64,000 nt of DNA from Escherichia coli (GTDB lineage: Bacteria > Pseudomonadota > Gammaproteobacteria > Enterobacterales > Enterobacteriaceae). Made by a program: the position numbers and the translations under genes. The DNA lies in the NCBI RefSeq assembly GCF_036507355.1, contig NZ_AP027877.1, one strand, 5' to 3'. Below are positions 3,890 to 41,293 of this stretch, one piece after another. Below the pieces are notes generated by a model. It was not told the origin of the DNA and did not search any database. It saw only the letters and a program-made list of their open reading frames with translations. The number at the start of each line of letters is the position of its first letter. The first letter of the stretch is position 1.

Positions 3890-6079
3890 ATGCTTTACAA
3901 AGGCGACACCCTGTACCTTGACTGGCTGGAAGATGGCATTGCCGAACTGGTATTTGATGCCCCAGGTTCAGTTAATAAACTCGACACTGCGACCGTCGCC
4001 AGCCTCGGCGAGGCCATCGGCGTGCTGGAACAGCAATCAGATCTAAAAGGGCTGCTGCTGCGTTCGAACAAAGCAGCCTTTATCGTCGGTGCTGATATCA
4101 CCGAATTTTTGTCCCTGTTCCTCGTTCCTGAAGAACAGTTAAGTCAGTGGCTGCACTTTGCCAATAGCGTGTTTAATCGCCTGGAAGATCTGCCGGTGCC
4201 GACCATTGCTGCCGTCAATGGCTATGCGCTGGGCGGTGGCTGCGAATGCGTGCTGGCGACCGATTATCGTCTGGCGACGCCGGATCTGCGCATCGGTCTG
4301 CCGGAAACCAAACTGGGCATCATGCCGGGCTTTGGCGGTTCTGTACGTATGCCACGTATGCTGGGCGCTGACAGTGCGCTGGAAATCATTGCCGCCGGTA
4401 AAGATGTCGGCGCGGATCAGGCGCTGAAAATCGGTCTGGTGGATGGCGTAGTCAAAGCAGAAAAACTGATTGAAGGGGCGATGGCGATTTTACGCCAGGC
4501 CATTAACGGCGACCTCGACTGGAAAGCGAAACGTCAGCCGAAGCTGGAACCGCTAAAACTGAGCAAGATTGAAGCCACCATGAGCTTCACCATCGCTAAA
4601 GGGATGGTCGCACAAACGGCGGGGAAACATTATCCGGCCCCCATCACCGCAGTAAAAACCATTGAAGCTGCGGCCCGTTTTGGTCGTGAAGAAGCCCTAA
4701 ACCTGGAAAACAAAAGTTTTGTCCCGCTGGCGCATACCAACGAAGCTCGCGCACTGGTCGGCATATTCCTTAACGATCAATATGTAAAAGGCAAAGCGAA
4801 GAAACTCACCAAAGACGTTGAAACCCCGAAACAGGCCGCTGTGCTGGGCGCAGGCATTATGGGCGGCGGCATCGCTTACCAGTCTGCGTGGAAAGGCGTG
4901 CCGGTTGTCATGAAAGATATCAACGACAAGTCGTTAACCCTCGGCATGACCGAAGCCGCGAAACTGCTGAACAAGCAGCTTGAGCGCGGCAAGATCGATG
5001 GTCTGAAACTGGCTGGCGTGATCTCTACAATCCACCCAACGCTCGACTACGCCGGGTTTGACCGCGTGGATATTGTGGTAGAAGCTGTTGTCGAAAACCC
5101 AAAAGTGAAAAAAGCCGTACTGGCAGAAACCGAGCAGAAAGTACGCCCGGATACCGTGCTGGCGTCTAACACTTCAACCATTCCTATCAGCGAACTGGCC
5201 AACGCGCTGGAACGTCCGGAAAACTTCTGCGGGATGCACTTCTTTAACCCGGTACATCGGATGCCGTTGGTGGAAATTATTCGCGGCGAGAAAAGCTCCG
5301 ACGAAACCATCGCGAAAGTCGTCGCCTGGGCAAGCAAGATGGGCAAAACGCCAATTGTGGTTAACGACTGCCCCGGCTTCTTCGTCAACCGTGTGCTGTT
5401 CCCCTATTTCGCCGGTTTCAGCCAGCTGCTGCGCGACGGCGCGGATTTTCGCAAGATCGACAAAGTGATGGAAAAACAGTTTGGCTGGCCGATGGGTCCG
5501 GCATATCTGCTGGATGTCGTGGGCATTGACACCGCGCATCACGCTCAGGCGGTGATGGCAGCAGGCTTCCCGCAGCGGATGCAGAAAGATTATCGCGATG
5601 CCATCGACGCGCTGTTTGATGCCAACCGCTTTGGTCAGAAGAACGGCCTCGGTTTCTGGCGTTATAAAGAAGACAGCAAAGGTAAGCCGAAGAAAGAAGA
5701 AGACGCCGCTGTTGACGACCTGCTGGCAGAAGTCAATCAGCCGAAGTGCGATTTCAGCGAGGAAGAGATTATCGCCCGCATGATGATCCCGATGGTCAAC
5801 GAAGTGGTGCGCTGTCTGGAAGAGGGCATTATCGCCACTCCGGCAGAAGCGGATATGGCGCTGGTCTACGGCCTGGGCTTCCCTCCGTTCCACGGCGGCG
5901 CGTTCCGCTGGCTGGACACCCTCGGCAGCGCGAAATACCTCGATATGGCACAGCAATATCAGCACCTCGGCCCGCTGTATGAAGTGCCGGAAGGTCTGCG
6001 TAATAAAGCGCGTCATAACGAACCGTACTATCCACCGGTTGAGCCAGCCCGTCCGGTTGGCGACCTGAAAACGGCTTAA
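3890..6079 (+). CDS. fadB: Fatty acid oxidation complex alpha subunit FadB
   Basis: Start [25 protein letters not shown] with GGAG RBS; the ORF-track start at 3764 is an upstream extension running through the FadR operator. Confidence 0.95.
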
Positions 6080-31991: not shown

Positions 31992-32459
31992 ATGTCTGCC
32001 GTACTGACCGCTGAACAAGCCCTGAAATTAGTGGGTGAGATGTTTGTTTATCACATGCCATTTAACCGCGCATTGGGGATGGAACTGGAGCGTTACGAAA
32101 AAGAGTTCGCACAGCTGGCCTTTAAAAATCAGCCAATGATGGTGGGCAACTGGGCGCAAAGCATTTTGCACGGCGGGGTCATTGCGTCGGCGCTGGATGT
32201 CGCCGCCGGTCTGGTGTGCGTGGGAAGTACCTTAACCCGCCACGAAACCATCAGTGAAGATGAACTACGCCAGCGGCTATCGCGGATGGGGACCATTGAT
32301 CTTCGCGTTGATTATCTGCGCCCAGGCAGGGGCGAGCGTTTTACTGCAACCAGTAGCCTGTTGCGTGCAGGCAATAAAGTCGCCGTCGCCCGCGTTGAAT
32401 TACACAATGAAGAACAGCTTTATATTGCCAGTGCCACCGCCACCTATATGGTAGGTTGA
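31992..32459 (+). CDS. yigI: Hotdog-fold acyl-CoA thioesterase YigI
   Basis: Start placed at [18 protein letters not shown] (155 aa). Confidence 0.85.
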
Positions 32460-32510
32460 AGACATAAAAGCAGGTAAACTGCTGTTACCAATTAAAAATG
32501 AGTATTCCCG

Positions 32511-33401
32511 ATGGATGCAAAACAAACGCGGCAGGGCGTATTACTCGCTCTTGCCGCTTATTTTATTTGGGGTATAGCCCCAGCGTACTTCAAGTTGATT
32601 TACTACGTGCCCGCCGATGAAATCCTGACGCATCGCGTGATCTGGTCGTTTTTCTTTATGGTGGTGCTGATGAGCATTTGCCGCCAGTGGTCCTATTTAA
32701 AAACGCTGATTCAGACGCCACAGAAAATTTTTATGCTTGCAGTCTCTGCCGTGCTGATTGGTGGCAACTGGCTACTGTTTATCTGGGCGGTGAACAATCA
32801 CCATATGCTGGAAGCGAGCCTTGGTTACTTTATTAACCCGCTGGTGAACATTGTGCTGGGGATGATTTTCCTCGGCGAGCGATTCCGCCGGATGCAATGG
32901 CTGGCGGTGATTCTGGCGATATGTGGCGTGTTGGTTCAGCTGTGGACTTTTGGTTCACTGCCGATCATCGCGCTGGGACTGGCATTTAGTTTTGCCTTCT
33001 ACGGTCTGGTACGCAAGAAGATTGCCGTTGAAGCGCAAACCGGCATGTTAATCGAAACTATGTGGCTGCTGCCCGTGGCGGCAATTTACCTGTTTGCTAT
33101 TGCCGATAGCTCAACCAGCCATATGGGGCAAAACCCGATATCGCTGAATTTACTGCTGATCGCTGCCGGTATTGTCACTACCGTACCGCTGTTGTGTTTT
33201 ACTGCAGCTGCGACACGCCTGCGTCTCTCAACGTTAGGCTTTTTCCAGTACATTGGCCCGACGCTGATGTTCCTGCTGGCTGTGACGTTTTATGGTGAAA
33301 AACCGGGTGCCGATAAAATGGTGACTTTCGCCTTTATTTGGGTGGCGCTGGCAATTTTTGTGATGGATGCAATTTATACTCAACGTAGAACGTCCAAATA
33401 A
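32511..33401 (+). CDS. rarD: EamA/DMT-family transporter RarD
   Basis: 296-aa polytopic ORF MDAKQTRQGVLLALAAYFIWGIAPAYFKL. Confidence 0.92.
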   Translation: MDAKQTRQGVLLALAAYFIWGIAPAYFKLIYYVPADEILTHRVIWSFFFMVVLMSICRQWSYLKTLIQTPQKIFMLAVSAVLIGGNWLLFIWAVNNHHMLEASLGYFINPLVNIVLGMIFLGERFRRMQWLAVILAICGVLVQLWTFGSLPIIALGLAFSFAFYGLVRKKIAVEAQTGMLIETMWLLPVAAIYLFAIADSSTSHMGQNPISLNLLLIAAGIVTTVPLLCFTAAATRLRLSTLGFFQYIGPTLMFLLAVTFYGEKPGADKMVTFAFIWVALAIFVMDAIYTQRRTSK

Positions 33402-33435
33402 AAAATAAATATATTCTGAAAAAATATGCCGACTC

Positions 33436-33813
33436 TTGCATGAGAGTGGGCATATTGCCATGCTGACAGGAGACTCACACAAGGATGTAAAATTTATGTT
33501 ACGTATGTTTATCCCAACATCTAACGGTAAGATTTCCAGACGCCGTTATATATTTTCATTTATTTTAATAAACTTCATTTTTGCCTTTCTTATTATCTTT
33601 TTTAACGATGGAGAAGCAGGTTTTCTTGTTATAGTCTCTACCATCTTACTCCATTATCTCGTCATCAATCTGAATTGCCAACGACTCCGTGATAGTGGTT
33701 TCGTCTATATAAAAACTTATGTTTTTGGTACATTAGCAGTATATATCATCTCTATCATCACAATGATAGCCGAAGATTTTGCCTGTTCAGGCAATGGTTC
33801 GATGATTTTTTAA
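33436..33813 (+). CDS. yigG: Small inner membrane protein YigG
   Basis: 125-aa ORF with two hydrophobic helices; position after rarD; AT-rich. Confidence 0.6.
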
Positions 33814-33888
33814 TTTGTTATTTTTCCACTTTCAGTATGCTAATGCTTGCACCTACTGATTCATCAAAACAATAGTTATGGAGTATTT

Positions 33889-34269
33889 ATGAGTAAGGAA
33901 TATATGAACGATGGTTCATTAAGTGAAAAATGGAAATACCGATTTAATTTTTATGATCAACATGGTTTTCCTGGATTCTGGGGGGCAACACCAGAATATA
34001 AAGCAGCATTTAAAGCATTAAAAGTAAGACAACGCTTAACTATTCAAATGAATTTCATTGCTTTCTTCTGTTCCTAGATATATTTATTTGTCCTGGGGTT
34101 ATGGAAAAAAGCAATTATAGTTCTATTACTTGGTATTCTATCTCTATTTGTTGGTGCACTAATTGGCGTTAACATTCTGGGTATTGCCGTAGCAGCCTAT
34201 GTTGCTGTTAACACGAACAAATGGTTCTATGAGAAAGAAGTAAAAGGGTTAAATACCTGGAGCCTTTGA
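33889..34269 (+). pseudogene. yigF: yigF (DUF2628-type small membrane protein) interrupted by an in-frame amber codon at 34075-34077
   Basis: MSKEYMNDGSLSEKWKYRFNFYDQHGFPGFWG... stops at TAG after 62 codons, then the same frame stays open for 63 more protein-like hydrophobic codons to TGA at 34267-34269. Confidence 0.6.
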
Positions 34270-34309
34270 ATAAGAGGTGGCTTAGCCAGGCTAAGCCACC
34301 GCCTTCTTT

Positions 34310-34445
34310 TTACAACCAGTTCTTGCGCTTAAAGTACAGATACGGTGCCAGGCCCGCGAGGATCATAAAGATAATCGCGCCTGGGTAGCCGAAACTCCAC
34401 TTCAGTTCTGGCATAAACTCAAAGTTCATGCCATAGCTGGAGGCA
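34310..34445 (-). repeat. Orphan near-identical copy of the corA 3' end (direct repeat of 36017-36150)
   Basis: Encodes ...[43 protein letters not shown], the CorA C-terminus including the GMN motif; only a few mismatches to the intact corA 3' end. Confidence 0.85.
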
Positions 34446-34637
34446 ATCCGCGTAGGAAAAAGTTTCCTAATCGGTAAATTCAACATATTGTTATTAACAA
34501 TGGGCAAAACCAATCAATAACGAGATTCCCTTCGGAATGTAATAAAAATGTGAAGTGTACTTCTTTTTTAAAATTTTTTATCCTAGCATTTGTTCTCAAA
34601 TTGATATTGAGCTTAAATATAACCAAGGAAAATGTAA

Positions 34638-35345
34638 ATGAATAACACATTACTTCCATCAATTAATATTCCCTGTACACTTTTCGAAACTATTAGTTTA
34701 TTTGATGATTATTCTGCTGATGATATGCAATATGGTGATATGGTAGAACAAGATTTTCTCTCACTCGGCCTAAGCGATATCTCAGCAAAAGTTGATCCTT
34801 ACAGACTTATTAAATACCATTTCCCTGGCCCAGGTTCTGTTAATGTTGTTTTTAGTGCCTCAAGTTCCGGAACAAAAATATCACAACGTGAATGCACTGA
34901 TATTTTATTTGCAGAAATGAAAGAACTAGCAAAAAATTTTTCCTTTTTTGGACAATATAAAACACTTATCGAAGATCTGATTGAACATTTTAGATATGGA
35001 AATGGCAGCAATTTTCATAGCCAACAATTAAATTTATCTTTTCATGAAAAGATAAATAAATATGGTTATAATAGTCCAATACGAATAATCAAAGAATGTA
35101 TCGAAAATGGCATTAATTCAACTCCCTCGACAGGATACCAACCTCTTATCCTGCAAAGCATTAAAACCAAATTACTTTCATCAAGACTAAATAAATTTAA
35201 TGACTTCGAGGACAGTTTTAATGGCTTAGGAATCAGTATTCATGATATTTCAGCTCAAAAAAATATCTCTTTTAAGCTTTCAAAAATACGCTATAGGGTG
35301 GAGTGCGACAATTCATTTTGTAGCACAGGACCACTTCGGTCTTGA
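34638..35345 (+). CDS. Hypothetical protein in the AT-rich corA-adjacent insert; probably frameshifted (alternative frame continues to 35487)
   Basis: 235-aa ORF with no match recalled; AT-rich; an A7 tract at 35260-35266 lies where a second frame opens and runs to a TGA overlapping the next gene start. Confidence 0.45.
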   Translation: MNNTLLPSINIPCTLFETISLFDDYSADDMQYGDMVEQDFLSLGLSDISAKVDPYRLIKYHFPGPGSVNVVFSASSSGTKISQRECTDILFAEMKELAKNFSFFGQYKTLIEDLIEHFRYGNGSNFHSQQLNLSFHEKINKYGYNSPIRIIKECIENGINSTPSTGYQPLILQSIKTKLLSSRLNKFNDFEDSFNGLGISIHDISAQKNISFKLSKIRYRVECDNSFCSTGPLRS

Positions 35346-35483
35346 TGTAACTGATATCAAAAACAAGACTTACAGCAAATATAGATTTTTTCGCATATGG
35401 TTCTTTTTACAACGGCATAAAGGCTTTGCTTTCAAACCTTTTTTCACCAATTTTAACACTATCGAAAGAATCGAAAATTATCT

Positions 35484-35975
35484 ATGAAAAGCAAACGCCA
35501 GAAAATTATATTATGTTTATTTCTTCTATGCTGTATCTATAATTTATGGACATTGCGTCCTGTACAGATTTTGTATACATACTCTGATGCTGGCAATTCA
35601 GTCTTTCTGGTCGTTGATCATCTGCCATGGACTGACAGCGATAAAATAAATTGGTATCTGAAGCATCAGAATGAAATTAAAAATCAACATCCCCTACCAG
35701 AAGGTAGTTGGCATACCTGGTATGTCATTGATATCGGTAATGGCTTCACTGACTATAAAAAATATATCGAAGGGCCGTATGAAGATCTCTACTGTTTCCC
35801 GACAATTAAGAGCAATGATAATTGCATCGTGAAAAATTACTTAATGGTTATTAATGAATACCCTTATCGTAACACTCATATTGGTATTAACGATTTTACT
35901 GAGTATCAATTAACACAAGAAAATAAAATAGAGCGAGTTTTCAATCCGCATGACTTTAAAAAAGACAATTTTTAG
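35484..35975 (+). CDS. Hypothetical small membrane-anchored protein (N-terminal signal/TM segment), second gene of the insert
   Basis: 163-aa ORF MKSKRQKIILCLFLLCCIYNLW...; Trp/Tyr-rich; AT-rich; followed by a GCCGGATAAA...TTTATCCGGC hairpin. Confidence 0.5.
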   Translation: MKSKRQKIILCLFLLCCIYNLWTLRPVQILYTYSDAGNSVFLVVDHLPWTDSDKINWYLKHQNEIKNQHPLPEGSWHTWYVIDIGNGFTDYKKYIEGPYEDLYCFPTIKSNDNCIVKNYLMVINEYPYRNTHIGINDFTEYQLTQENKIERVFNPHDFKKDNF

Positions 35976-36016
35976 AAATAAGCCGGATAAAAAAATAGCT
36001 TTATCCGGCACTCATA

Positions 36017-36967
36017 TTACAACCAGTTCTTCCGCTTAAAGTACAGATACGGTGCCAGGCCCGCGAGGATCATAAAGATAATCGCGCCTGGGTAGCCGAA
36101 ACTCCACTTCAGTTCTGGCATAAACTCAAAGTTCATCCCGTAGCTGGAAGCAACCAGCGTTGGCGGCAGGAACACGACGGATACCACCGAGAAAATTTTG
36201 ATGATGCGGTTCTGCTCGATGTTGATAAAACCCATTGCCGCCTGCATCAGGAAGTTCACCTTCTGGAACAGGGATTCGTTATGCGGCAGCAGGGATTCGA
36301 TATCTCGCAGGATTTCACGCGCCTGCTCCAGTTGCCCACCCGGTAAGCGTGCTTTACGTACCAGGAAGTTGAGAGCGCGCTGGGTATCCATCAGACACAG
36401 GCGAACTTTCCAGCCGATATCTTCCAGTTCCGCCAGAGTGGAGAGCGCCTCGTCGTACTCATCGCCCTGATGCCCTTCCATAATCACCCGGCTCAATTGC
36501 TCCAGGTCGCTATAGATATTTTCAATTTCATCTGCCAACTGTTCGATTTTGGTTTCGAACAAATCCAGCAGCAACTCGTAGGCGTTACCGTCTACCATCG
36601 ACTGGCTACGGGCACGCATACGATATAGACGAAAAGCGGGCAGTTCACGCTCACGCAGAGTAAACAGACGACCATCACGGATGGTAAATGCCACAGTGGA
36701 GTTACCGGCGTGATCTTCCGCATCTTCAAAGAAGAAGAAGGAGTGAATATGCAGGCCGTCATCGTCTTCAAAGAAACGTGCCGATGCTTCGATGTCTTCC
36801 AGTTCCGGGCGGGTTGCCAGGCTCTGGCCAAGTTCAGATTGTACGCGCAGTCGCTCGTCGTCGTCCGGTTCGACAAGATCAATCCATACTGCATTTACAA
36901 GGGGTTGTGACTCTTCGACTTCCAGCCGGGTCAGTCGGTTATTTTCCAGTTGAAATGCGCTCAGCAT
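36017..36967 (-). CDS. corA: Magnesium/cobalt transport protein CorA
   Basis: Start placed at [31 protein letters not shown] (316 aa); GMN motif and C-terminal TM helices. Confidence 0.95.
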
Positions 36968-37336
36968 GACCGGGACTCCCAATGCTTAAAATATCGGACA
37001 GTTCGGTGGGCACACAGAAACAAATTGGGTTTCAGACCATTAAACAGCCTGACTCAGCGCGACGGGAAAAATTGAGGTCGCTGACAACCGCTAAGGCTAT
37101 CAGCAAAAAGGGATAGCCTTAGGAGTTGATCCTGGATGACAGGATAGTGAGCCAGTATCTACTGGGTGTGTCCAAGGCGAATGTCCTCTTAGAGTGATCG
37201 TGCGCGCATGTTACGCCAGCAAAATTTTGCCGTCAACACGCAACAGAACACCACAGAACAATAGTTGAACTTCGCGCTTTTTGGTACTCGTCAAGGTCGC
37301 TAACAGGATAAAAAAATCCCACATCCAGGACCTATA

Positions 37337-38101
37337 ATGGCGCATCGGCTACTCATTGGTAAAGGAATGATCACCTTGAATCTCAAACGGATTTTTCTCG
37401 CCCTCACCTTACTTCCCTTGTTTGTTGTTGCCGCTGATGATTGCGCACTCTCAGATCCGACGCTGACCGTACAGGCGTATACCGTTAATCCTCAAACAGA
37501 GCGGGTGAAAATGTACTGGCAAAAAGCCAATGGCGAAGCGTGGGGAACTTTACATGCTCTGCTGGCGGATATGAATAGTCAGGGTCAGGTGCAGATGGCG
37601 ATGAACGGCGGCATCTATGATGAAAGCTATACGCCGCTCGGTTTGTACATCGAAAACGGTCAGCAGAAGGTGGCGTTAAATCTCGCTTCAGGTGAAGGGA
37701 ATTTCTTTATCCGTCCTGGCGGCGTGTTTTATGTCGCGGGAGATAAAGTCGGCATCGTTCGTCTGGATGCCTTCAAAACCAGTAAAGAGATTCAGTTTGC
37801 GGTGCAGTCAGGGCCAATGTTGATGGAAAACAGTGTAATTAATCCGCGTATTCATCCCAACGTCGCCTCACGTAAAATTCGTAACGGTGTTGGGATTAAT
37901 AAACATGGGAATGCCGTGTTTTTGTTGAGCCAGCAGGCGACAAATTTTTATGATTTTGCCTGTTATGCCAAAGCGAAACTGAACGTTGAGCAGCTGCTTT
38001 ATCTTGATGGCACGATTTCACATATGTATATGAAAGGCGGGGCAATCCCGTGGCAACGCTATCCTTTTGTCACCATGATTTCCGTCGAGCGGAAAGGTTA
38101 A
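37337..38101 (+). CDS. yigE: Secreted protein YigE
   Basis: 254-aa ORF with N-terminal signal sequence; position between corA and uvrD. Confidence 0.8.
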   Translation: MAHRLLIGKGMITLNLKRIFLALTLLPLFVVAADDCALSDPTLTVQAYTVNPQTERVKMYWQKANGEAWGTLHALLADMNSQGQVQMAMNGGIYDESYTPLGLYIENGQQKVALNLASGEGNFFIRPGGVFYVAGDKVGIVRLDAFKTSKEIQFAVQSGPMLMENSVINPRIHPNVASRKIRNGVGINKHGNAVFLLSQQATNFYDFACYAKAKLNVEQLLYLDGTISHMYMKGGAIPWQRYPFVTMISVERKG

Positions 38102-38183
38102 GCATTGTACACTCGAGGAGGCCAGACAAACTGGGGCTGGCTACACAGCTGGAAAATCATCAGATAAATGAAGGGAAACAAAA

Positions 38184-39086
38184 ATGAAAAAAACGCTCGC
38201 AACGTTATTTTTATTAACGTGTCTGGGATCATCATCCGCTTATGCGGATAACGCTTTGATTTTACAAACGGATTTTAGCCTGAAAGATGGCGCCGTCTCG
38301 GCGATGAAAGGGGTCGCATTCGGTGTTGACCATAATCTTAAAATATTTGATTTAACACACGAAATTCCACCGTATAACATCTGGGAAGGCGCATACCGCC
38401 TGTATCAGACCGCCAGCTACTGGCCGCAAGGTTCGGTGTTTGTCAGCGTGGTCGATCCGGGCGTGGGGACTGACCGTAAATCGGTGGTGCTGAAAACCAA
38501 AAACGGTCAATACTTCGTTTCACCGGATAACGGTACGCTCACTTTGGTGGCGCAATCGCTGGGTATTGAGAGCGTCCGGCAAATCGATGAAAAAACCAAC
38601 CGCCTGAACGGTTCCGAAAAGTCATATACCTTCCACGGTCGTGATGTGTATGCCTACACCGGTGCGCGTCTGGCTTCCGGGGCGATCACGTTCGAACAGG
38701 TGGGGCCAGAGCTTCCTGCAAAAGTTGTCGAACTGCCTTATCAGAAAGCCAAAGCAACAAAAGGTGAAGTAAAGGGCAATATCCCGATTCTCGATATTCA
38801 GTACGGCAACGTCTGGAGCAATATCAGCGACGAGTTGCTGAATCAGGCAGGAATCAAACTCAACGATACGTTATGTGTGACCATTTCCGAAGGTTCCGAG
38901 AAAAAATACGAAGGGAAAATGCCGTATGTCGCCAGCTTCGGCGATGTGCCGGAAGGACAGCCGATGGTGTATCTGAACAGCTTATTGAATGTTTCCGTGG
39001 CGCTGAATATGGATAATTTCGCGCAGAAACATCAGGTTGCGTCTGGTGCTGACTGGAATATTGATGTGAAGAAATGTGATAAGTAA
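38184..39086 (+). CDS. Signal-peptide-bearing SAM hydroxide adenosyltransferase-like (DUF62 / fluorinase-chlorinase fold) protein
   Basis: Signal peptide MKKTLATLFLLTCLGSSSAYA, then LILQTDFSLKDGAVSAMKGV matching the DUF62 N-terminal signature (xxLxTDFGxxDxYVGxMKGV); not in my recollection of the K-12 yigE-uvrD interval. Confidence 0.6.
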   Translation: MKKTLATLFLLTCLGSSSAYADNALILQTDFSLKDGAVSAMKGVAFGVDHNLKIFDLTHEIPPYNIWEGAYRLYQTASYWPQGSVFVSVVDPGVGTDRKSVVLKTKNGQYFVSPDNGTLTLVAQSLGIESVRQIDEKTNRLNGSEKSYTFHGRDVYAYTGARLASGAITFEQVGPELPAKVVELPYQKAKATKGEVKGNIPILDIQYGNVWSNISDELLNQAGIKLNDTLCVTISEGSEKKYEGKMPYVASFGDVPEGQPMVYLNSLLNVSVALNMDNFAQKHQVASGADWNIDVKKCDK

Positions 39087-39130
39087 GGTGCTGATGCCGG
39101 ATGCGGTGTGGCGCACCGCATCCCGCAACG

Positions 39131-41293
39131 TTATACCGTCTCCAGCCGGGCGTATGCCGCCACCAGCCATTTAATACCCTGGCCCTGGAATGCCACCTGC
39201 AAACGGCTATGCTCGCCGCTGCCTTCCATATTGACGATAGTGCCTTCACCAAACTTAGCGTGGCGTACACGCTGGCCGAGCTTGTAGCCGCTGTCGTTCT
39301 CGACCATCGGCGTACCCATACGCTGATGGCTGACCGGGCGGCTTACCGTGGCGCGCAGGCGCACCTCTTCCACACACTCTTCCGGCAACTCACCGATAAA
39401 GCGCGACGGGCGATGGTAAACCTCTTTGCCATACAGACGGCGAGTTTCCGCGTAGGTCAGCGTCAGTTTCTGCATCGCGCGGGTTACGCCAACGTAGGCC
39501 AGACGGCGTTCTTCTTCCAGACGACCGCCTTCATCCAGCGACATCTGGCTTGGGAACATGCCCTCTTCCATACCGACGATAAACACCTGCGGGAACTCCA
39601 GCCCTTTCGCCGAGTGTAGCGTCATCAACTGCACCGCGTCCTGCCAGGTATCCGCCTGCCCCTCGCCCGCTTCCAGCGCCGCATGGGAGAGGAATGCCTG
39701 CAGCGGCATTAAATCTTCGTCTTCTTCGTTGTAGCTGAACTGGCGCGTTGCCGTCACCAGTTCCTCCAGGTTTTCGATACGCGTCTGACCTTTTTCGCCC
39801 TTCTCCTGCTCGTACATGGTGCGCAGGCCGGAGTCTTTAATTACCCGGTCAGTCTGTACATGCAGCGGCATATCGGCAGTTTCCTGCGCTAAGGCGTCGA
39901 TCAGTTCCATAAACCGCTGTAAGGCGCTGGCAGCACGTCCGGCGAGGGCTTTTTCCTGCAACAGTTCACGACATGCCTGCCAGAGTGTTAACTGGCGATC
40001 GCGCGATGTCTGACGTACCACGTCCAGCGTCCGGTCACCAATACCCCGCGTTGGCGTATTCACCACACGCTCAAAGGCCGCGTCGTCGTTGCGGTTGGCA
40101 ATCAGGCGCAGATACGAGAGCGCATCTTTGATTTCCTGGCGTTCGAAGAAGCGCATCCCGCCGTAAATACGGTACGGCATACTGGCCTGCAATAACGCCT
40201 CTTCGAGCACCCGCGACTGGGCGTTGCTGCGGTAGAGAATGGCGCACTCGGCAAGCGCTCCGCCGTTGTCCTGCCAGGTTTTGATGCGGTTAACCACAAA
40301 ACGCGCTTCATCGAGTTCGTTAAAAGCGCAATAGAGGGAAATAGGCTCACCGTCCGCGCCATCGGTCCACAGTTTTTTACCCAGACGCCCGTTATTGTTT
40401 TCAATCAGGGCGTTAGCGGCGCTCAGAATATTGCTGGTAGAGCGGTAGTTTTGCTCCAGACGAATAGTTTCAGCACCGGGGAAATCATTGAGGAAACGCT
40501 GAATATTCTCTACCTGCGCCCCGCGCCAGCCGTAGATTGACTGGTCGTCATCACCGACGATCATCACTTTGCCGGTGTCGCCCGCCAGCAGGCGGATCCA
40601 CGCGTACTGAATGTTGTTGGTATCCTGGAATTCGTCCACCAGGATATTGGTAAAACGTTCGCGGTAGTGTTGCAGGATATGCGGCTTGTTAAGCCACAGT
40701 TCGTGGGCGCGCAGCAGCAGCTCGGCGAAATCCACCAGACCCGCGCGGTCACACGCTTCCTGATACGCCTGATACACCTTCTGCCAGGTCTGCTCCACCG
40801 GATTACCGTAGCTTTGAATATGATGCGGACGTAAGCCTTCATCTTTCTGGCTGTTGATGTACCACATTGCCTGGCGCGGCGGCCACTGCTTCTCGTCGAG
40901 GTTCATCGCCTTGATCAAACGCTTAAGCAGGCGCAGCTGGTCTTCACTGTCGAGGATCTGGAAATCCTGCGGCAGATTGGCGTCCATATGGTGCGCACGC
41001 AGCAGGCGGTGCGCCAGCCCGTGGAAGGTGCCTACCCACATGCCGCCCTGGCTGGTGCCCATCAGTTGCCCGATACGATGACGCATTTCCGCCGCCGCTT
41101 TGTTGGTAAACGTCATCGCCATAATCGAGTATGGCGAGCAGTTTTCCACGCTCATCAGCCAGGCGATACGATGCACCAGTACGCGCGTCTTACCACTGCC
41201 CGCGCCCGCCAGCACCAGAAGGTTGCTGCGTGGCGCGGCCACCGCTTCGCGCTGTTTGTCATTAAGGCTGTCGAGCAGGTAAGAAACGTCCAT
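39131..41293 (-). CDS. uvrD: DNA helicase II UvrD
   Basis: Start placed at MDVSYLLDSLNDKQREAVAAPRSNLLVLAGAGSGKTRV (720 aa); the ORF-track 63-codon extension overlaps yigB and is discounted. Confidence 0.95.
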   Translation of the reverse strand: MDVSYLLDSLNDKQREAVAAPRSNLLVLAGAGSGKTRVLVHRIAWLMSVENCSPYSIMAMTFTNKAAAEMRHRIGQLMGTSQGGMWVGTFHGLAHRLLRAHHMDANLPQDFQILDSEDQLRLLKRLIKAMNLDEKQWPPRQAMWYINSQKDEGLRPHHIQSYGNPVEQTWQKVYQAYQEACDRAGLVDFAELLLRAHELWLNKPHILQHYRERFTNILVDEFQDTNNIQYAWIRLLAGDTGKVMIVGDDDQSIYGWRGAQVENIQRFLNDFPGAETIRLEQNYRSTSNILSAANALIENNNGRLGKKLWTDGADGEPISLYCAFNELDEARFVVNRIKTWQDNGGALAECAILYRSNAQSRVLEEALLQASMPYRIYGGMRFFERQEIKDALSYLRLIANRNDDAAFERVVNTPTRGIGDRTLDVVRQTSRDRQLTLWQACRELLQEKALAGRAASALQRFMELIDALAQETADMPLHVQTDRVIKDSGLRTMYEQEKGEKGQTRIENLEELVTATRQFSYNEEDEDLMPLQAFLSHAALEAGEGQADTWQDAVQLMTLHSAKGLEFPQVFIVGMEEGMFPSQMSLDEGGRLEEERRLAYVGVTRAMQKLTLTYAETRRLYGKEVYHRPSRFIGELPEECVEEVRLRATVSRPVSHQRMGTPMVENDSGYKLGQRVRHAKFGEGTIVNMEGSGEHSRLQVAFQGQGIKWLVAAYARLETV

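Follow-up and report, generated by a model that had tools for sequence, protein, structure and literature searches.

DUF62 proteins have so far been known as cytoplasmic hydrolases of S-adenosylmethionine (SAM) and as the ancestors of the fluorinases and chlorinases; the characterized family members are slow and their physiology is debated (PMC12120602). Substrate binding in the family is attributed to an Asp (FDAS D16) and to the motifs PxNGL and IDxxFGN (the latter with FDAS N215), while an Asp-Arg-His triad that is thought to activate water (D68, R75, and H127 of PH0463) defines the hydrolases (PMC4859513). The halogenases FlA/FDAS, SalL, ClA1, and ClA2 replace this triad, with Y70 and G131 in SalL and T80 and S158 in FDAS, and the fluorinases carry an extra loop. 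DUF62 enzymes are homotrimers whose active sites lie at the subunit interfaces. The DUF62 proteins that have been characterized or solved have no signal peptide, are cytoplasmic, and are proposed to remove (R,S)-SAM.

Outside this family, UshA (5'-nucleotidase/UDP-sugar hydrolase), CpdB (2',3'-cyclic phosphodiesterase), AphA, and Agp are scavenging hydrolases of the periplasm, Sec-exported soluble enzymes that make a porin-permeable compound importable. The E. coli DUF62 protein described here is proposed to follow the same logic, although these hydrolases have unrelated folds and act on phosphoester substrates. The literature searched describes no periplasmic enzyme with SAM as its substrate, discusses no exported DUF62 protein, and reports no assay of one.

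The E. coli protein has the fold and Pfam domains of PH0463 (Pyrococcus horikoshii), MJ1651, StDUF62 (Salinispora tropica), SaciSAMH, HvSAMH, and 2zbu. With the (R)-SAM hydrolases it has in common the ribose-binding Asp, the PxNG and xDxx[FY]GN motifs, and the Asp-Arg-His triad, from which the expected chemistry is the conversion of SAM and water to adenosine and L-methionine. It differs from the characterized DUF62 proteins in a predicted cleavable signal, a Cys pair, and an identity of just 30-34%. The halogenases are homologous in fold (TM 0.77-0.81) and share the adenosyl-binding motifs, but the triad that they replace is intact here.

The DUF62 gene and its locus in E. coli

The window analyzed is a 64,000-nt stretch of E. 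coli DNA (assembly GCF_036507355.1, contig NZ_AP027877.1). A first-pass annotation of its letters had described a 300-aa ORF with a signal peptide and a DUF62 N-terminal signature between yigE and uvrD, and this was confirmed on the + strand at 38184-39086, with the sequence as quoted. The features of the locus are as follows.

37337..38101, + strand: yigE, the upstream neighbor, with a signal-like peptide; homolog of the phosphodiester glycosidases (Pfam NAGPA/DUF2233); context only
38102..39086, no strand assigned: segment polymorphic in E. coli (MG1655 alignment), full in 2413 genomes
38102..38183, + strand: 82-bp spacer from the yigE stop to the DUF62 start, with an SD-like GAAGGGA 8 nt 5' of the ATG
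38184..39086, + strand: DUF62/SAM hydrolase-like gene, 300 aa, complete, stop codon included (ORF list, Pfam, dN/dS about 0.05)
39092..39130, no strand assigned: GC-rich hairpin between the convergent DUF62 gene and uvrD, about -24 kcal/mol on both strands (RNA fold)

The ORF opens with ATG and encodes a protein with the N-terminus MKKTLATLFLLTCLGSSSAYA, followed after the predicted cleavage site by DNALILQTDFSLKDGAVSAMKGV. RefSeq places a CDS at the same position in strain S51 under the generic name "SAM hydrolase/SAM-dependent halogenase family protein". Judged by dN/dS values of 0.04-0.06 against Escherichia and Helicobacter orthologs, the gene is real and under strong purifying selection, and a chance ORF is excluded. 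The neighboring yigE had been described as coding for a secreted protein, and its product does have a signal-like N-terminus and, further, a Pfam match to NAGPA (phosphodiester glycosidase). Because the + strand of the spacer contains no terminator-like site and only a weak fold (RNA fold), co-transcription of the DUF62 gene with yigE is possible. The hairpin beyond the DUF62 gene is probably a bidirectional terminator, and its right half is common to K-12. Adjacency to yigE is limited to Escherichia and absent around non-Escherichia homologs; yigE is context and not a conserved partner.

Of 5426 complete E. coli genomes, 2413 carry the gene in this position, and the others (about 56%, K-12 among them) match the flanks only. 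The first-pass annotation did not place the gene in the K-12 yigE-uvrD interval, and alignment to MG1655 agrees: the interval there is just 146 bp, with no DUF62 gene. In this alignment the left breakpoint of the segment is the yigE stop and the right one lies approximately at the DUF62 stop codon. Essentially none of the 2413 carriers has a disrupted reading frame, and no second DUF62 gene was found at this site in E. coli. Since K-12 does without the gene and has no other DUF62 gene at the site, the distribution does not resemble that of a cytoplasmic housekeeping function in this context.

In place of the segment, K-12-type genomes carry some 105 bp that are unrelated to it and look, by eye, like a REP element. 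The allele of strain HS-02, 79% identical, was considered as a pseudogene and rejected, as the region is full of homopolymer errors and the disruption is an assembly artifact.

Fold, active site, and export signal

HMM, sequence, and fold searches agree, and the protein is thus firmly a member of the DUF62/SAM_HAT family, as had been proposed. The positions of the domains and of the active-site residues are given below.

38259..38705, + strand: N-terminal alpha/beta domain SAM_HAT_N (PF01887), residues 26-174, Pfam E 3.5e-53
38271-38273, + strand: D30, ribose-binding Asp, equivalent to FDAS D16 (PMC4859513)
38454-38456, + strand: D91, triad Asp, equivalent to PH0463 D68
38475-38477, + strand: R98, triad Arg, equivalent to PH0463 R75
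38523-38534, + strand: P114-D-N-G motif, conserved in the exported and cytoplasmic groups
38634-38636, + strand: H151, triad His, equivalent to PH0463 H127, placed via the conserved FHGRD motif in alignments
38775..39056, + strand: C-terminal beta domain SAM_HAT_C (PF20257), residues 198-291, Pfam E 1.3e-18

The Pfam scores were 179.7 bits for SAM_HAT_N (cut-off 26.3) and 67.5 bits for SAM_HAT_C (cut-off 25.5), and sequence matches in the PDB were to DUF62 proteins, SalL, ClA1, PH0463, MJ1651, and fluorinases (E 1.8e-43 to 5e-20). An AF2 monomer model reached a pLDDT of 94.8 and, searched with Foldseek, matched 2zbu (the DUF62 protein of T. maritima), SalL, FlA, and PH0463 (E 1e-32 to 1e-24, TM 0.75-0.81); all 40 Foldseek matches in the PDB at E <= 0.001 were DUF62, chlorinase, or fluorinase structures (E 1e-32 to 2e-18). 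The NCBIfam equivalogs for (R)-SAM hydrolases were not reached (132.5 against 350 bits for NF058624 and 114.9 against 470 bits for NF053629), and scores so far under the cut-offs imply that the protein is not an ortholog of the characterized archaeal or Thermus-type enzymes. Domain fusions were uninformative as to function, with mixed partners (Y_phosphatase3, alpha/beta hydrolase, M15 peptidase, emfourin).

All of the family's active-site elements are kept, namely D30, D91-PGVG, R98, PDNG, F-H151-GRD, and LDxxYGN, and each is found in at least 85% of 120 exported-like sequences and of cytoplasmic relatives; D91, R98, and H151 are conserved in 85-97% of exported-clade sequences. D91 and R98 are separated by 7, as in PH0463. 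In P114-D-N-G-T a Thr replaces the Leu of PxNGL, as it does throughout the exported clade, and L203-D-I-Q-Y-G-N209 in SAM_HAT_C is the counterpart of IDxxFGN with conservative I-to-L and F-to-Y changes (motif check). At the D91, R98, and H151 positions the alignment gives Y, T, and Y for SalL. With the water-activating triad retained, the enzyme is, by its residues, hydrolase-type rather than halogenase-type.

The export signal and the two cysteines of the mature protein lie at the following positions.

38184..38246, + strand: signal peptide, residues 1-21 (MKKTLATLFLLTCLGSSSAYA), predicted SPase I cleavage after A-Y-A
38874..38876, + strand: Cys231 codon, one of just two mature-protein cysteines, paired with Cys298
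39075..39077, + strand: Cys298 codon, partner of Cys231, co-occurring with it in the proteobacterial subclade

By inspection and hydropathy, the signal divides into an n-region MKK with K2 and K3, a 12-residue h-region TLATLFLLTCLG with a mean Kyte-Doolittle value of 1.97, and a c-region SSSAYA that places A-Y-A at -3 to -1, before D. In the AF2 model residues 2-14 form a detached helix (pLDDT 64-69) and the domain begins at residue 24. A hydrophobic N-terminal extension is present in 80 of the 80 closest genome loci, which span Pseudomonadota, Campylobacterota, Bacteroidota, Verrucomicrobiota, Synergistota, Bacillota, Fusobacteriota, Thermotogota, and Planctomycetota, and it is also found in the H. 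pylori and Aeromonas orthologs. The signal is, on this prediction, a canonical Sec/SPase I signal, and export is predicted. The clear signal peptide of the first-pass annotation thus stands, with its tripartite layout and its conservation in orthologs. Its remark that an exported DUF62 protein is unusual applies to the characterized or solved enzymes, none of which has a signal peptide, but not to nature, where export signals are common (the 80 loci above, and 49 of 76 full-length representatives at 50% identity). Lipoprotein processing at L-L-T-C13 was considered and rejected, as the -1 residue is Thr and neither H. acinonychis nor some of the H. pylori sequences have Cys13.

All 33 sequences of the proteobacterial subclade (down to 60% identity) contain both Cys231 and Cys298, and these are the only two Cys of each mature protein; elsewhere, a single sequence has one of the two alone and 86 exported sequences have neither. 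Proteins of the exported clade have no Cys at all in 48 of 87 cases, against a median of 3 in the cytoplasmic relatives. The protein shows the pattern expected in an oxidizing compartment, in which Cys are absent or paired, and we infer a disulfide between Cys231 and Cys298.

Relatives in Helicobacter and MetJ boxes in Aeromonas

The H. pylori protein HP0709, also 300 aa long, is an ortholog with 88-92% identity and shares the signal layout, the triad, and the Cys pair. In our tree it groups with Escherichia at 200/200 support inside the gammaproteobacterial group, and the dN/dS of this comparison is 0.055, with values of 0.04-0.05 within Escherichia. Together, the identity, the tree position, and the dN/dS indicate a transfer between phyla, linking the Escherichia-type and Helicobacter genes, a striking case for two phyla that share the human gut. 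The HP0709 DNA is 82.7% identical to the E. coli gene and has a GC content of 44.5% against 38% in its surroundings, so that it appears partly ameliorated. The E. coli and H. pylori loci are homologous only as far as the ends of the ORF, and the context of HP0709 (rsmH-HP0708-[HP0709]-homA-like OMP) is unrelated to that in E. coli. The gene is core-like and fixed in H. pylori and H. acinonychis, and one cluster at 90% identity has 2579 members. HP0709 has been listed in the H. pylori OMV proteome, in a list that also contains many cytoplasmic proteins and thus lends weak support to export (PMC8756444), and it was a gastric-cancer GWAS hit with "conflicting annotations", listed as "adenosyl-chloride synthase" (PMC6090961). 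Neither of two candidate vectors for the transfer was retained: the "plasmid" matches were chromosomes mislabeled in PLSDB, and the Helicobacter "phage" match was a prophage record including a flanking bacterial gene, consistent with PMC11321410.

Gene neighborhoods gave little further guidance. When 538 flanking ORFs from the 80 loci were clustered, only genus-level synteny emerged, with no cross-phylum partner and no transporter or salvage gene as a conserved neighbor.

A probable regulatory link was found in Aeromonas. MetJ, the SAM-corepressed methionine repressor, is functional in Aeromonadales (PMC3228920). Gammaproteobacterial genes of its regulon have at least two 8-bp metboxes (AGACGTCT) in tandem near the promoter. 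Aeromonas orthologs have a conserved promoter followed immediately by tandem metboxes. In A. caviae these read GGACGTCCAAACGTCT; in the A. caviae group they lie directly behind a -10-like hexamer, match the consensus at 13 of 16 positions, and closely resemble the operators of metJ/metB (AGACGTCTAAATGGCT) and metF (AGACGTCCAAACATCC) in the same genome; across about 279 kb of Aeromonas DNA, all matches of at least 13/16 sit at the DUF62 gene, metJ, or metF. These metboxes point to a link with methionine/SAM physiology that is independent of homology. Switching on a SAM-cleaving enzyme at low SAM is sensible only where the target is an external pool, and the MetJ boxes would thus favor an exported role. 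In some Aeromonas species there is also a PurR-like GTAAACGTTTTC within or near the divergent upstream ORF.

Searches elsewhere were negative. Upstream of the E. coli gene and of yigE the best metbox score was 9/16 in both regions, and no MetJ, PurR, CRP, CytR, Fur, or DeoR box was found there; nor was there a metbox upstream of the Edwardsiella, Pasteurellaceae, Thorsellia, or H. pylori orthologs. Rfam gave no match in 36900-39300 of the window (two sub-threshold matches to miRNA families were taken as chance), and no riboswitch for SAM or any other ligand was found at 24 loci from Bacillota, Fusobacteriota, Synergistota, Thermotogota, Bacteroidota, and Verrucomicrobiota.

Proposed function and its alternatives

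We propose, with a probability of roughly 0.55, that the protein hydrolyzes SAM in the periplasm to scavenge methionine and adenosine. SAM (398 Da) can pass porins, and E. coli is not known to carry it over the inner membrane. As a Sec-exported, soluble periplasmic enzyme, the DUF62 protein would hydrolyze exogenous S-adenosyl-L-methionine (one sulfonium epimer or both) at C5', yielding adenosine and L-methionine, which would then be taken up through existing nucleoside and methionine transporters. A non-importable metabolite would in this way become importable nutrients, as with UshA and CpdB. The model assumes that SAM is available outside cells in the gut, the stomach, or water, and the substrate, products, stereoselectivity, localization, and physiological benefit are all things that we infer. 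Against it stand the distance from the (R)-SAM hydrolase equivalogs, the slowness of the characterized enzymes, the negative searches for a metbox or SAM riboswitch at the E. coli gene and for a conserved transporter or salvage neighbor, and the many E. coli genomes that lack the gene.

A wider reading is tentative and, taken as a whole, falls somewhat short of even odds. In it, exported DUF62 enzymes would be a widespread and previously unrecognized means, spread over many phyla, of harvesting extracellular SAM for methionine (sulfur) and a purine nucleoside; the Aeromonas gene would have been wired into the MetJ methionine-starvation regulon; and an Escherichia-type copy would have changed phylum, entering the lineage ancestral to H. 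pylori and H. acinonychis, and become fixed there. H. pylori needs external methionine and purines, and SAM is chemically stable at acid pH. Fixation in Helicobacter would, on this reading, be due to this auxotrophy and to an acid habitat in which SAM is stable, and adenosine released locally from host SAM as a by-product could also modulate host responses.

If a large exported branch of the family is real, SAM, which is treated as a strictly intracellular cofactor, would also be an environmental nutrient under bacterial competition. A function would be gained for HP0709 (core, OMV-listed, and associated with gastric cancer by GWAS), the Aeromonas MetJ regulon would gain a new member, and one of the clean presence/absence differences between K-12-type strains and O157, ST131, ST69, and Shigella-type strains would be explained.

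An exported enzyme might use the same SN2 chemistry at C5' on a different natural substrate, another 5'-substituted adenosine or adenosyl-onium compound such as decarboxylated SAM, a SAM-derived natural product, or a nucleoside antibiotic, with a role in detoxification or use. We consider this unlikely. The unreached (R)-SAM hydrolase equivalogs are in keeping with it, as are the differences in residue preference between the exported and cytoplasmic groups at K42, A70, N209, and D35 and the confinement of methionine/SAM regulatory signals to Aeromonas. So is Leu267, at the position aligned to SalL Arg243, which presumably contacts the methionine carboxylate; the DUF62 protein of T. maritima, however, also lacks an equivalent of this Arg (it has Ala), and the position is therefore not discriminating. 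The family-wide active-site residues are all unchanged, alignments of the exported and cytoplasmic groups revealed no clade-specific swap of a conserved pocket residue, and the Aeromonas MetJ boxes point specifically to methionine supply.

It is very improbable that the protein is not, or only partly, exported and serves as a cytoplasmic (R,S)-SAM "repair" hydrolase like StDUF62 and the archaeal SAMHs, even though removal of the inactive (R)-sulfonium epimer is the sole role demonstrated in the family. Translation of a signal-less form from the in-frame TTG at codon 25 is conceivable, but no SD-like sequence lies 5' of this codon. The signal has been kept in all orthologs over hundreds of millions of years, during which its sequence drifts and its hydrophobicity stays, and the cysteines follow the pattern of exported proteins. 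Moreover, MetJ control that induced the destruction of cytoplasmic SAM at low SAM would be counter-productive.

We give still less credence to the notion of a dispensable accessory gene that has no current function in E. coli and has just not yet been deleted in some lineages. The many genomes without the gene, K-12 included, would suit this explanation, as would the lack of any dedicated regulatory signal among those sought in E. coli; yet the intact frames of the carriers, the dN/dS of 0.04-0.05 within Escherichia, and the fact that the sole apparent pseudogene comes from an assembly with many homopolymer errors all argue for a gene in use.

An exported SAM-dependent halogenase making 5'-chloro- or 5'-fluoro-5'-deoxyadenosine, tempting for chloride-rich gastric juice and suggested by the RefSeq family name, by SalL and ClA1 among the best structural matches, and by the "adenosyl-chloride synthase" label of HP0709 (PMC6090961), is the least credible of these explanations and was rejected on residues, since D91 occupies the position of SalL Y70 and FDAS T80 and R98 and H151 complete an intact triad, the score against the fluorinase equivalog TIGR04507 is 81.8 bits for a cut-off of 400, and characterized enzymes with the triad do not halogenate (PMC4859513; PMC12120602).

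The locus and its history in Escherichia

The first-pass annotation had placed a 300-codon ORF for an exported DUF62 protein between yigE and uvrD. The ORF stands, and its N-terminus (MKKTLATLFLLTCLGSSSAYA-DNALILQTDFSLKDGAVSAMKGV) is identical to the one quoted there. The gene is already known to RefSeq, under the generic name 'SAM hydrolase/SAM-dependent halogenase family protein' only. No terminator was found between yigE and the DUF62 gene; corA lies further left of yigE.

Features of the locus (window coordinates)
34638-35345: DUF3289 protein, low-GC island (RefSeq 'YPO3983 family')
35484-35975: DUF943 membrane protein, low-GC island (RefSeq 'DUF943 family')
37337-38101, + strand: yigE, upstream neighbour of the DUF62 gene
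8 nt upstream of the DUF62 gene ATG, + strand: SD-like sequence GAAGGGA
38184..39086, + strand: DUF62 gene, 300 codons, ATG start
39092-39130: hairpin by RNA folding (about -24 kcal/mol), between the DUF62 gene and uvrD
from 39131, - strand: uvrD, convergent with the DUF62 gene

Of 5426 complete E. coli genomes, 2413 carry the full-length gene at this same position, among them O157:H7, ST131-type, ST69 and ATCC 25922 strains, and Shigella copies were found by protein search. The remaining genomes, including K-12 derivatives and UMNK88, matched the flanks only. K-12 does lack the gene here: the MG1655 yigE-uvrD interval (L002 6147-6292) is just 146 bp. Divergence starts at the yigE stop codon and stops about at the DUF62 gene stop codon, with ~105 bp of unrelated sequence in place of a 985-bp gene segment. 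This 'empty' allele is no simple deletion, and by eye the replacement resembles a REP sequence (GCCGGATGCGGCGTAAACGCCCTATCCGGC). The order yigE-gene-uvrD is unchanged in a cryptic-clade Escherichia, and a 72%-identical orthologue in Edwardsiella piscicida adjoins recQ-pldA-rarD-corA, the same chromosomal neighbourhood; this synteny suggests long residence in the Enterobacterales with repeated loss. The allele in the window is uncommon: 7 genomes match it at 99% identity or more, and most at 95-96%. A copy in E. coli HS-02 (NZ_CP172818.1; L006 4786-5812), annotated as a frameshifted pseudogene with 79% identity, has G/A/T homopolymer runs throughout, so that sequencing errors left uncorrected seem a better account of it than allelic divergence.

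Two features nearby were also observed. YigE of the S51/window-type allele (37337-38101) was just 93-94% identical to that of two divergent Escherichia representatives (L007 and L008, a cryptic-clade strain and strain SCPM-O-B-8794), whereas CorA and UvrD were 99-100% identical across the same strains; yigE is therefore evolving faster than its flanks. Directly left of corA, a low-GC island (33500-36000; 31-33% GC vs about 51% window-wide) encodes an 81-aa ORF besides the two proteins listed. Among 5426 complete E. coli genomes, just 301, BL21 derivatives and E. coli C included, covered 80% or more of a query spanning it (32000-36000).

Family, active site and predicted export

Pfam matched the protein to SAM_HAT_N (E 3.5e-53) and SAM_HAT_C (E 1.3e-18). 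The best phmmer match among PDB sequences was the T. maritima DUF62 protein 2zbu (E 1.8e-43), with further matches to SalL, ClA1, PH0463, MJ1651 and fluorinases. An AlphaFold2 model built from a 106-sequence alignment had a mean pLDDT of 94.8, with a globular part from residue 24 and the signal peptide (residues 2-14) as a detached helix of lower confidence. Foldseek returned 40 PDB matches with E <= 0.001 (1e-32 to 2e-18; TM up to 0.81), every one a DUF62 protein, chlorinase or fluorinase. NCBIfam scores stayed short of the equivalog cut-offs for fluorinase and for both (R)-SAM hydrolase models, which makes the protein a member of the family without being orthologous to any enzyme that has been characterised.

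DUF62 proteins share an Asp equivalent to FDAS D16 and the motifs PxNGL and IDxxFGN, and the residues that tell them apart are D68-R75-H127 for hydrolases, T80/S158 for fluorinase and Y70/G131 for SalL (PMC4859513). The window protein carries D30, P114-DNG-T, L203-DIQYG-N209 and the triad residues D91, R98 and H151, with the same D-to-R spacing of 7 as PH0463. In an alignment of 120 exported-like and 27 cytoplasmic-like relatives, these residues and motifs were 85-100% conserved in both groups alike, and no replacement of a conserved pocket residue was specific to the exported group. By its triad and motif conservation the protein is hydrolase-type, not halogenase-type. A halogenase, the other activity in the RefSeq name, is barely credible and was rejected, since the triad is intact where SalL has Y, T and Y.

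At the N-terminus, a basic n-region (K2, K3) is followed by a hydrophobic core of 12 residues (mean KD 1.97), and A-Y-A precedes the site of predicted cleavage. A lipoprotein is unlikely, as Thr precedes Cys13 and Cys13 is not conserved. In a homologue scan with one genome per species, a hydrophobic signal- or lipoprotein-like extension preceded the first beta-strand in all of the best 80 loci, which came from Escherichia, Helicobacter, Aeromonas, Edwardsiella, Pasteurellaceae, Thorsellia and Neisseriales, and from Chitinophagaceae, Cytophagales, Verrucomicrobiota, Synergistota, Tissierellia, Fusobacteriales, Thermotogota, Planctomycetota and Brocadiia. Among full-length 50%-identity representatives, those closest to the query split into 49 exported-like and 27 cytoplasmic-like proteins. 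Predicted export is a property of the whole clade, not a peculiarity of the window gene. In the proteobacterial subclade (60% identity and above), all 33 sequences have exactly two mature cysteines, at positions 231 and 298 and always together; 48 of the 87 remaining exported sequences have none, and the median among cytoplasmic relatives is three. This pattern fits export, and C231 and C298 probably form a disulfide. The signal layout, the clade-wide extensions and the Pfam, PDB and Foldseek matches bear out the claim of a DUF62 protein with an export signal.

Other architectures were seen among the relatives. Exported DUF62 proteins of about 640 aa in Fervidobacterium MAGs (L076 5971-7890, L078 5953-7875) contain one more SAM_HAT_C-like stretch and end in a Y_phosphatase3 domain (tyrosine-phosphatase family), and further metagenomic relatives are fused to alpha/beta hydrolase, M15 peptidase or emfourin domains. 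About 185 bp downstream of the homologue in Neisseriales/Burkholderiales MAGs (L022/L024/L038), on the opposite strand, lies an ORF that by eye we take to be phosphopentomutase (DeoB, nucleoside catabolism) and that is confined to these three loci, which are closely related.

The Helicobacter orthologue

After Escherichia/Shigella, the best proteins were those of H. pylori and H. acinonychis (300 aa, 88-92% identical), with signal peptide, triad and Cys pair as in E. coli. The H. pylori gene is HP0709 (L003 8001-8903; O25413), flanked by rsmH/HP0708 and a homA-like OMP gene. Next came Aeromonas (72-77%), Neisseriales and Burkholderiales MAGs, Pasteurellaceae, Edwardsiella and Thorsellia, with homologues in other phyla at 55-66% identity. 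A neighbour-joining tree joined Escherichia and Helicobacter in 200/200 bootstraps (each genus monophyletic in 192/200 and 190/200, respectively) and nested the pair within the gammaproteobacterial group, beside Edwardsiella. DNA identity between the E. coli and H. pylori genes was 82.7% (89/96/62% by codon position), and the gene is under selection (dS about 1.1, dN/dS 0.055). The H. pylori gene is richer in GC (44.5%; GC3 0.47-0.49) than the DNA around it (38%; GC3 0.31-0.43), with its GC content partly ameliorated; the E. coli gene is close to yigE in GC. Homology is limited to the ORF and ends at its ends.

We infer one ancient transfer from an Escherichia-lineage donor to the H. pylori/H. 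acinonychis ancestor, this direction being likely, and then fixation, for which one 90% cluster holds 2579 members. A search for a plasmid or phage carrier of the gene found none. PLSDB NZ_AP026896.1, NZ_CP134663.1 and NZ_CP141089.1 are whole 4.9 Mb A. caviae/E. coli chromosomes filed as 'plasmids' and therefore give false plasmid matches for chromosomal genes. No description of the transfer was found in the searchable literature, where mention of HP0709 was confined to an OMV proteome list and a gastric-cancer GWAS match whose annotations are admittedly conflicting.

MetJ boxes in Aeromonas and a candidate function

Upstream regions of orthologues from 17 Aeromonas species, once aligned, share a -35-like TTGCAA and, 16-17 nt further downstream, a -10-like hexamer that is directly followed by a conserved 18-mer. 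Within the A. caviae group the 18-mer is GGACGTC[CT]A[AG][AG]CGTCT, ending about 20 nt upstream of the ATG and matching two tandem MetJ boxes at 13/16. Operators in the A. caviae KAM479 chromosome (the mislabelled PLSDB plasmid), where metJ and metF were found by tblastn, are TCTAGACGTCTAAATGGCT (metJ) and AGACGTTTAGACGTCCAAACATCC (metF). GACGTCCAAAC is common to the A. caviae element and the metF operator, and the element of most other species, CTGGATGTCTAAATGGCT, matches the metJ operator at 16/18 positions. In about 279 kb of Aeromonas sequence, all tandem matches of at least 13/16 lay upstream of the DUF62 gene (6 loci) or at metJ or metF.

Tandem MetJ boxes at Aeromonas orthologues (coordinates of each comparison locus)
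L090 (A. caviae KAM479): 2158-2173
L014: 1176-1191
L015: 5941-5956
L028: 5942-5957
L016: 2888
L031: 5923

MetJ is functional in Aeromonadales, with SAM as corepressor, and the DUF62 gene is not among the published gammaproteobacterial MetJ regulon members (PMC3228920). For the E. coli, Edwardsiella, Pasteurellaceae, Thorsellia and H. pylori genes, the upstream regions had no MetJ box (best 9/16), and neither the window nor 24 loci from other phyla had a SAM riboswitch ahead of the gene. Induction of a SAM-cleaving enzyme in methionine/SAM shortage makes sense only with an external pool and a yield of methionine.

We favour, at roughly 55%, a periplasmic SAM scavenging hydrolase. The protein would be exported by Sec, cleaved and then folded in the periplasm, probably as a trimer like its relatives and, in proteobacteria, probably disulfide-stabilised. 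SAM would enter by diffusion via porins, and triad-activated water would attack its C5' to give adenosine and L-methionine, both for uptake. Of this scheme, the analysis itself supplies family, fold, catalytic residues, export signal, selection and the Aeromonas MetJ boxes; substrate, products, localisation and benefit are proposed. The signal peptides of monoderm Tissierellia argue for an external substrate, not a periplasm-specific one. Action on another extracellular adenosyl substrate is the alternative to be taken most seriously, at a minor share of the probability; the Aeromonas MetJ boxes point to methionine supply. A cytoplasmic or dual (R)-SAM repair enzyme is improbable. SAM hydroxide adenosyltransferases/(R)-SAM hydrolases are the closest class, whose fold and residue features the protein shares; unlike them, it is below the equivalog thresholds and predicted to be exported, and is therefore an exported variant outside the characterised orthologous groups. 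That the gene has no current function in E. coli, where many genomes have only the flanks, is more doubtful than the cytoplasmic reading. The original interpretation, a DUF62 enzyme in a compartment unexpected for SAM chemistry, holds.

SAM is more stable at acid pH. The scavenging hypothesis fits H. pylori well and would supply a function for HP0709, with a physiology open to direct testing: every H. pylori strain known is auxotrophic for methionine (PMC2923134), and the species cannot make purines de novo and depends on salvage (PMC13328217). Fold and chemistry are not new; what appears to be new is how widely the exported clade extends, along with the cysteine signature, the Aeromonas MetJ link, the E. 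coli/H. pylori transfer and the scavenging hypothesis itself.

Some Aeromonas (A. veronii/A. finlandensis group; L012, L020) also carry a PurR-box-like sequence, GTAAACGTTTTC, roughly 180 nt upstream from where the gene starts (near locus position 5793); it falls within or close to the beginning of the divergent ORF upstream.
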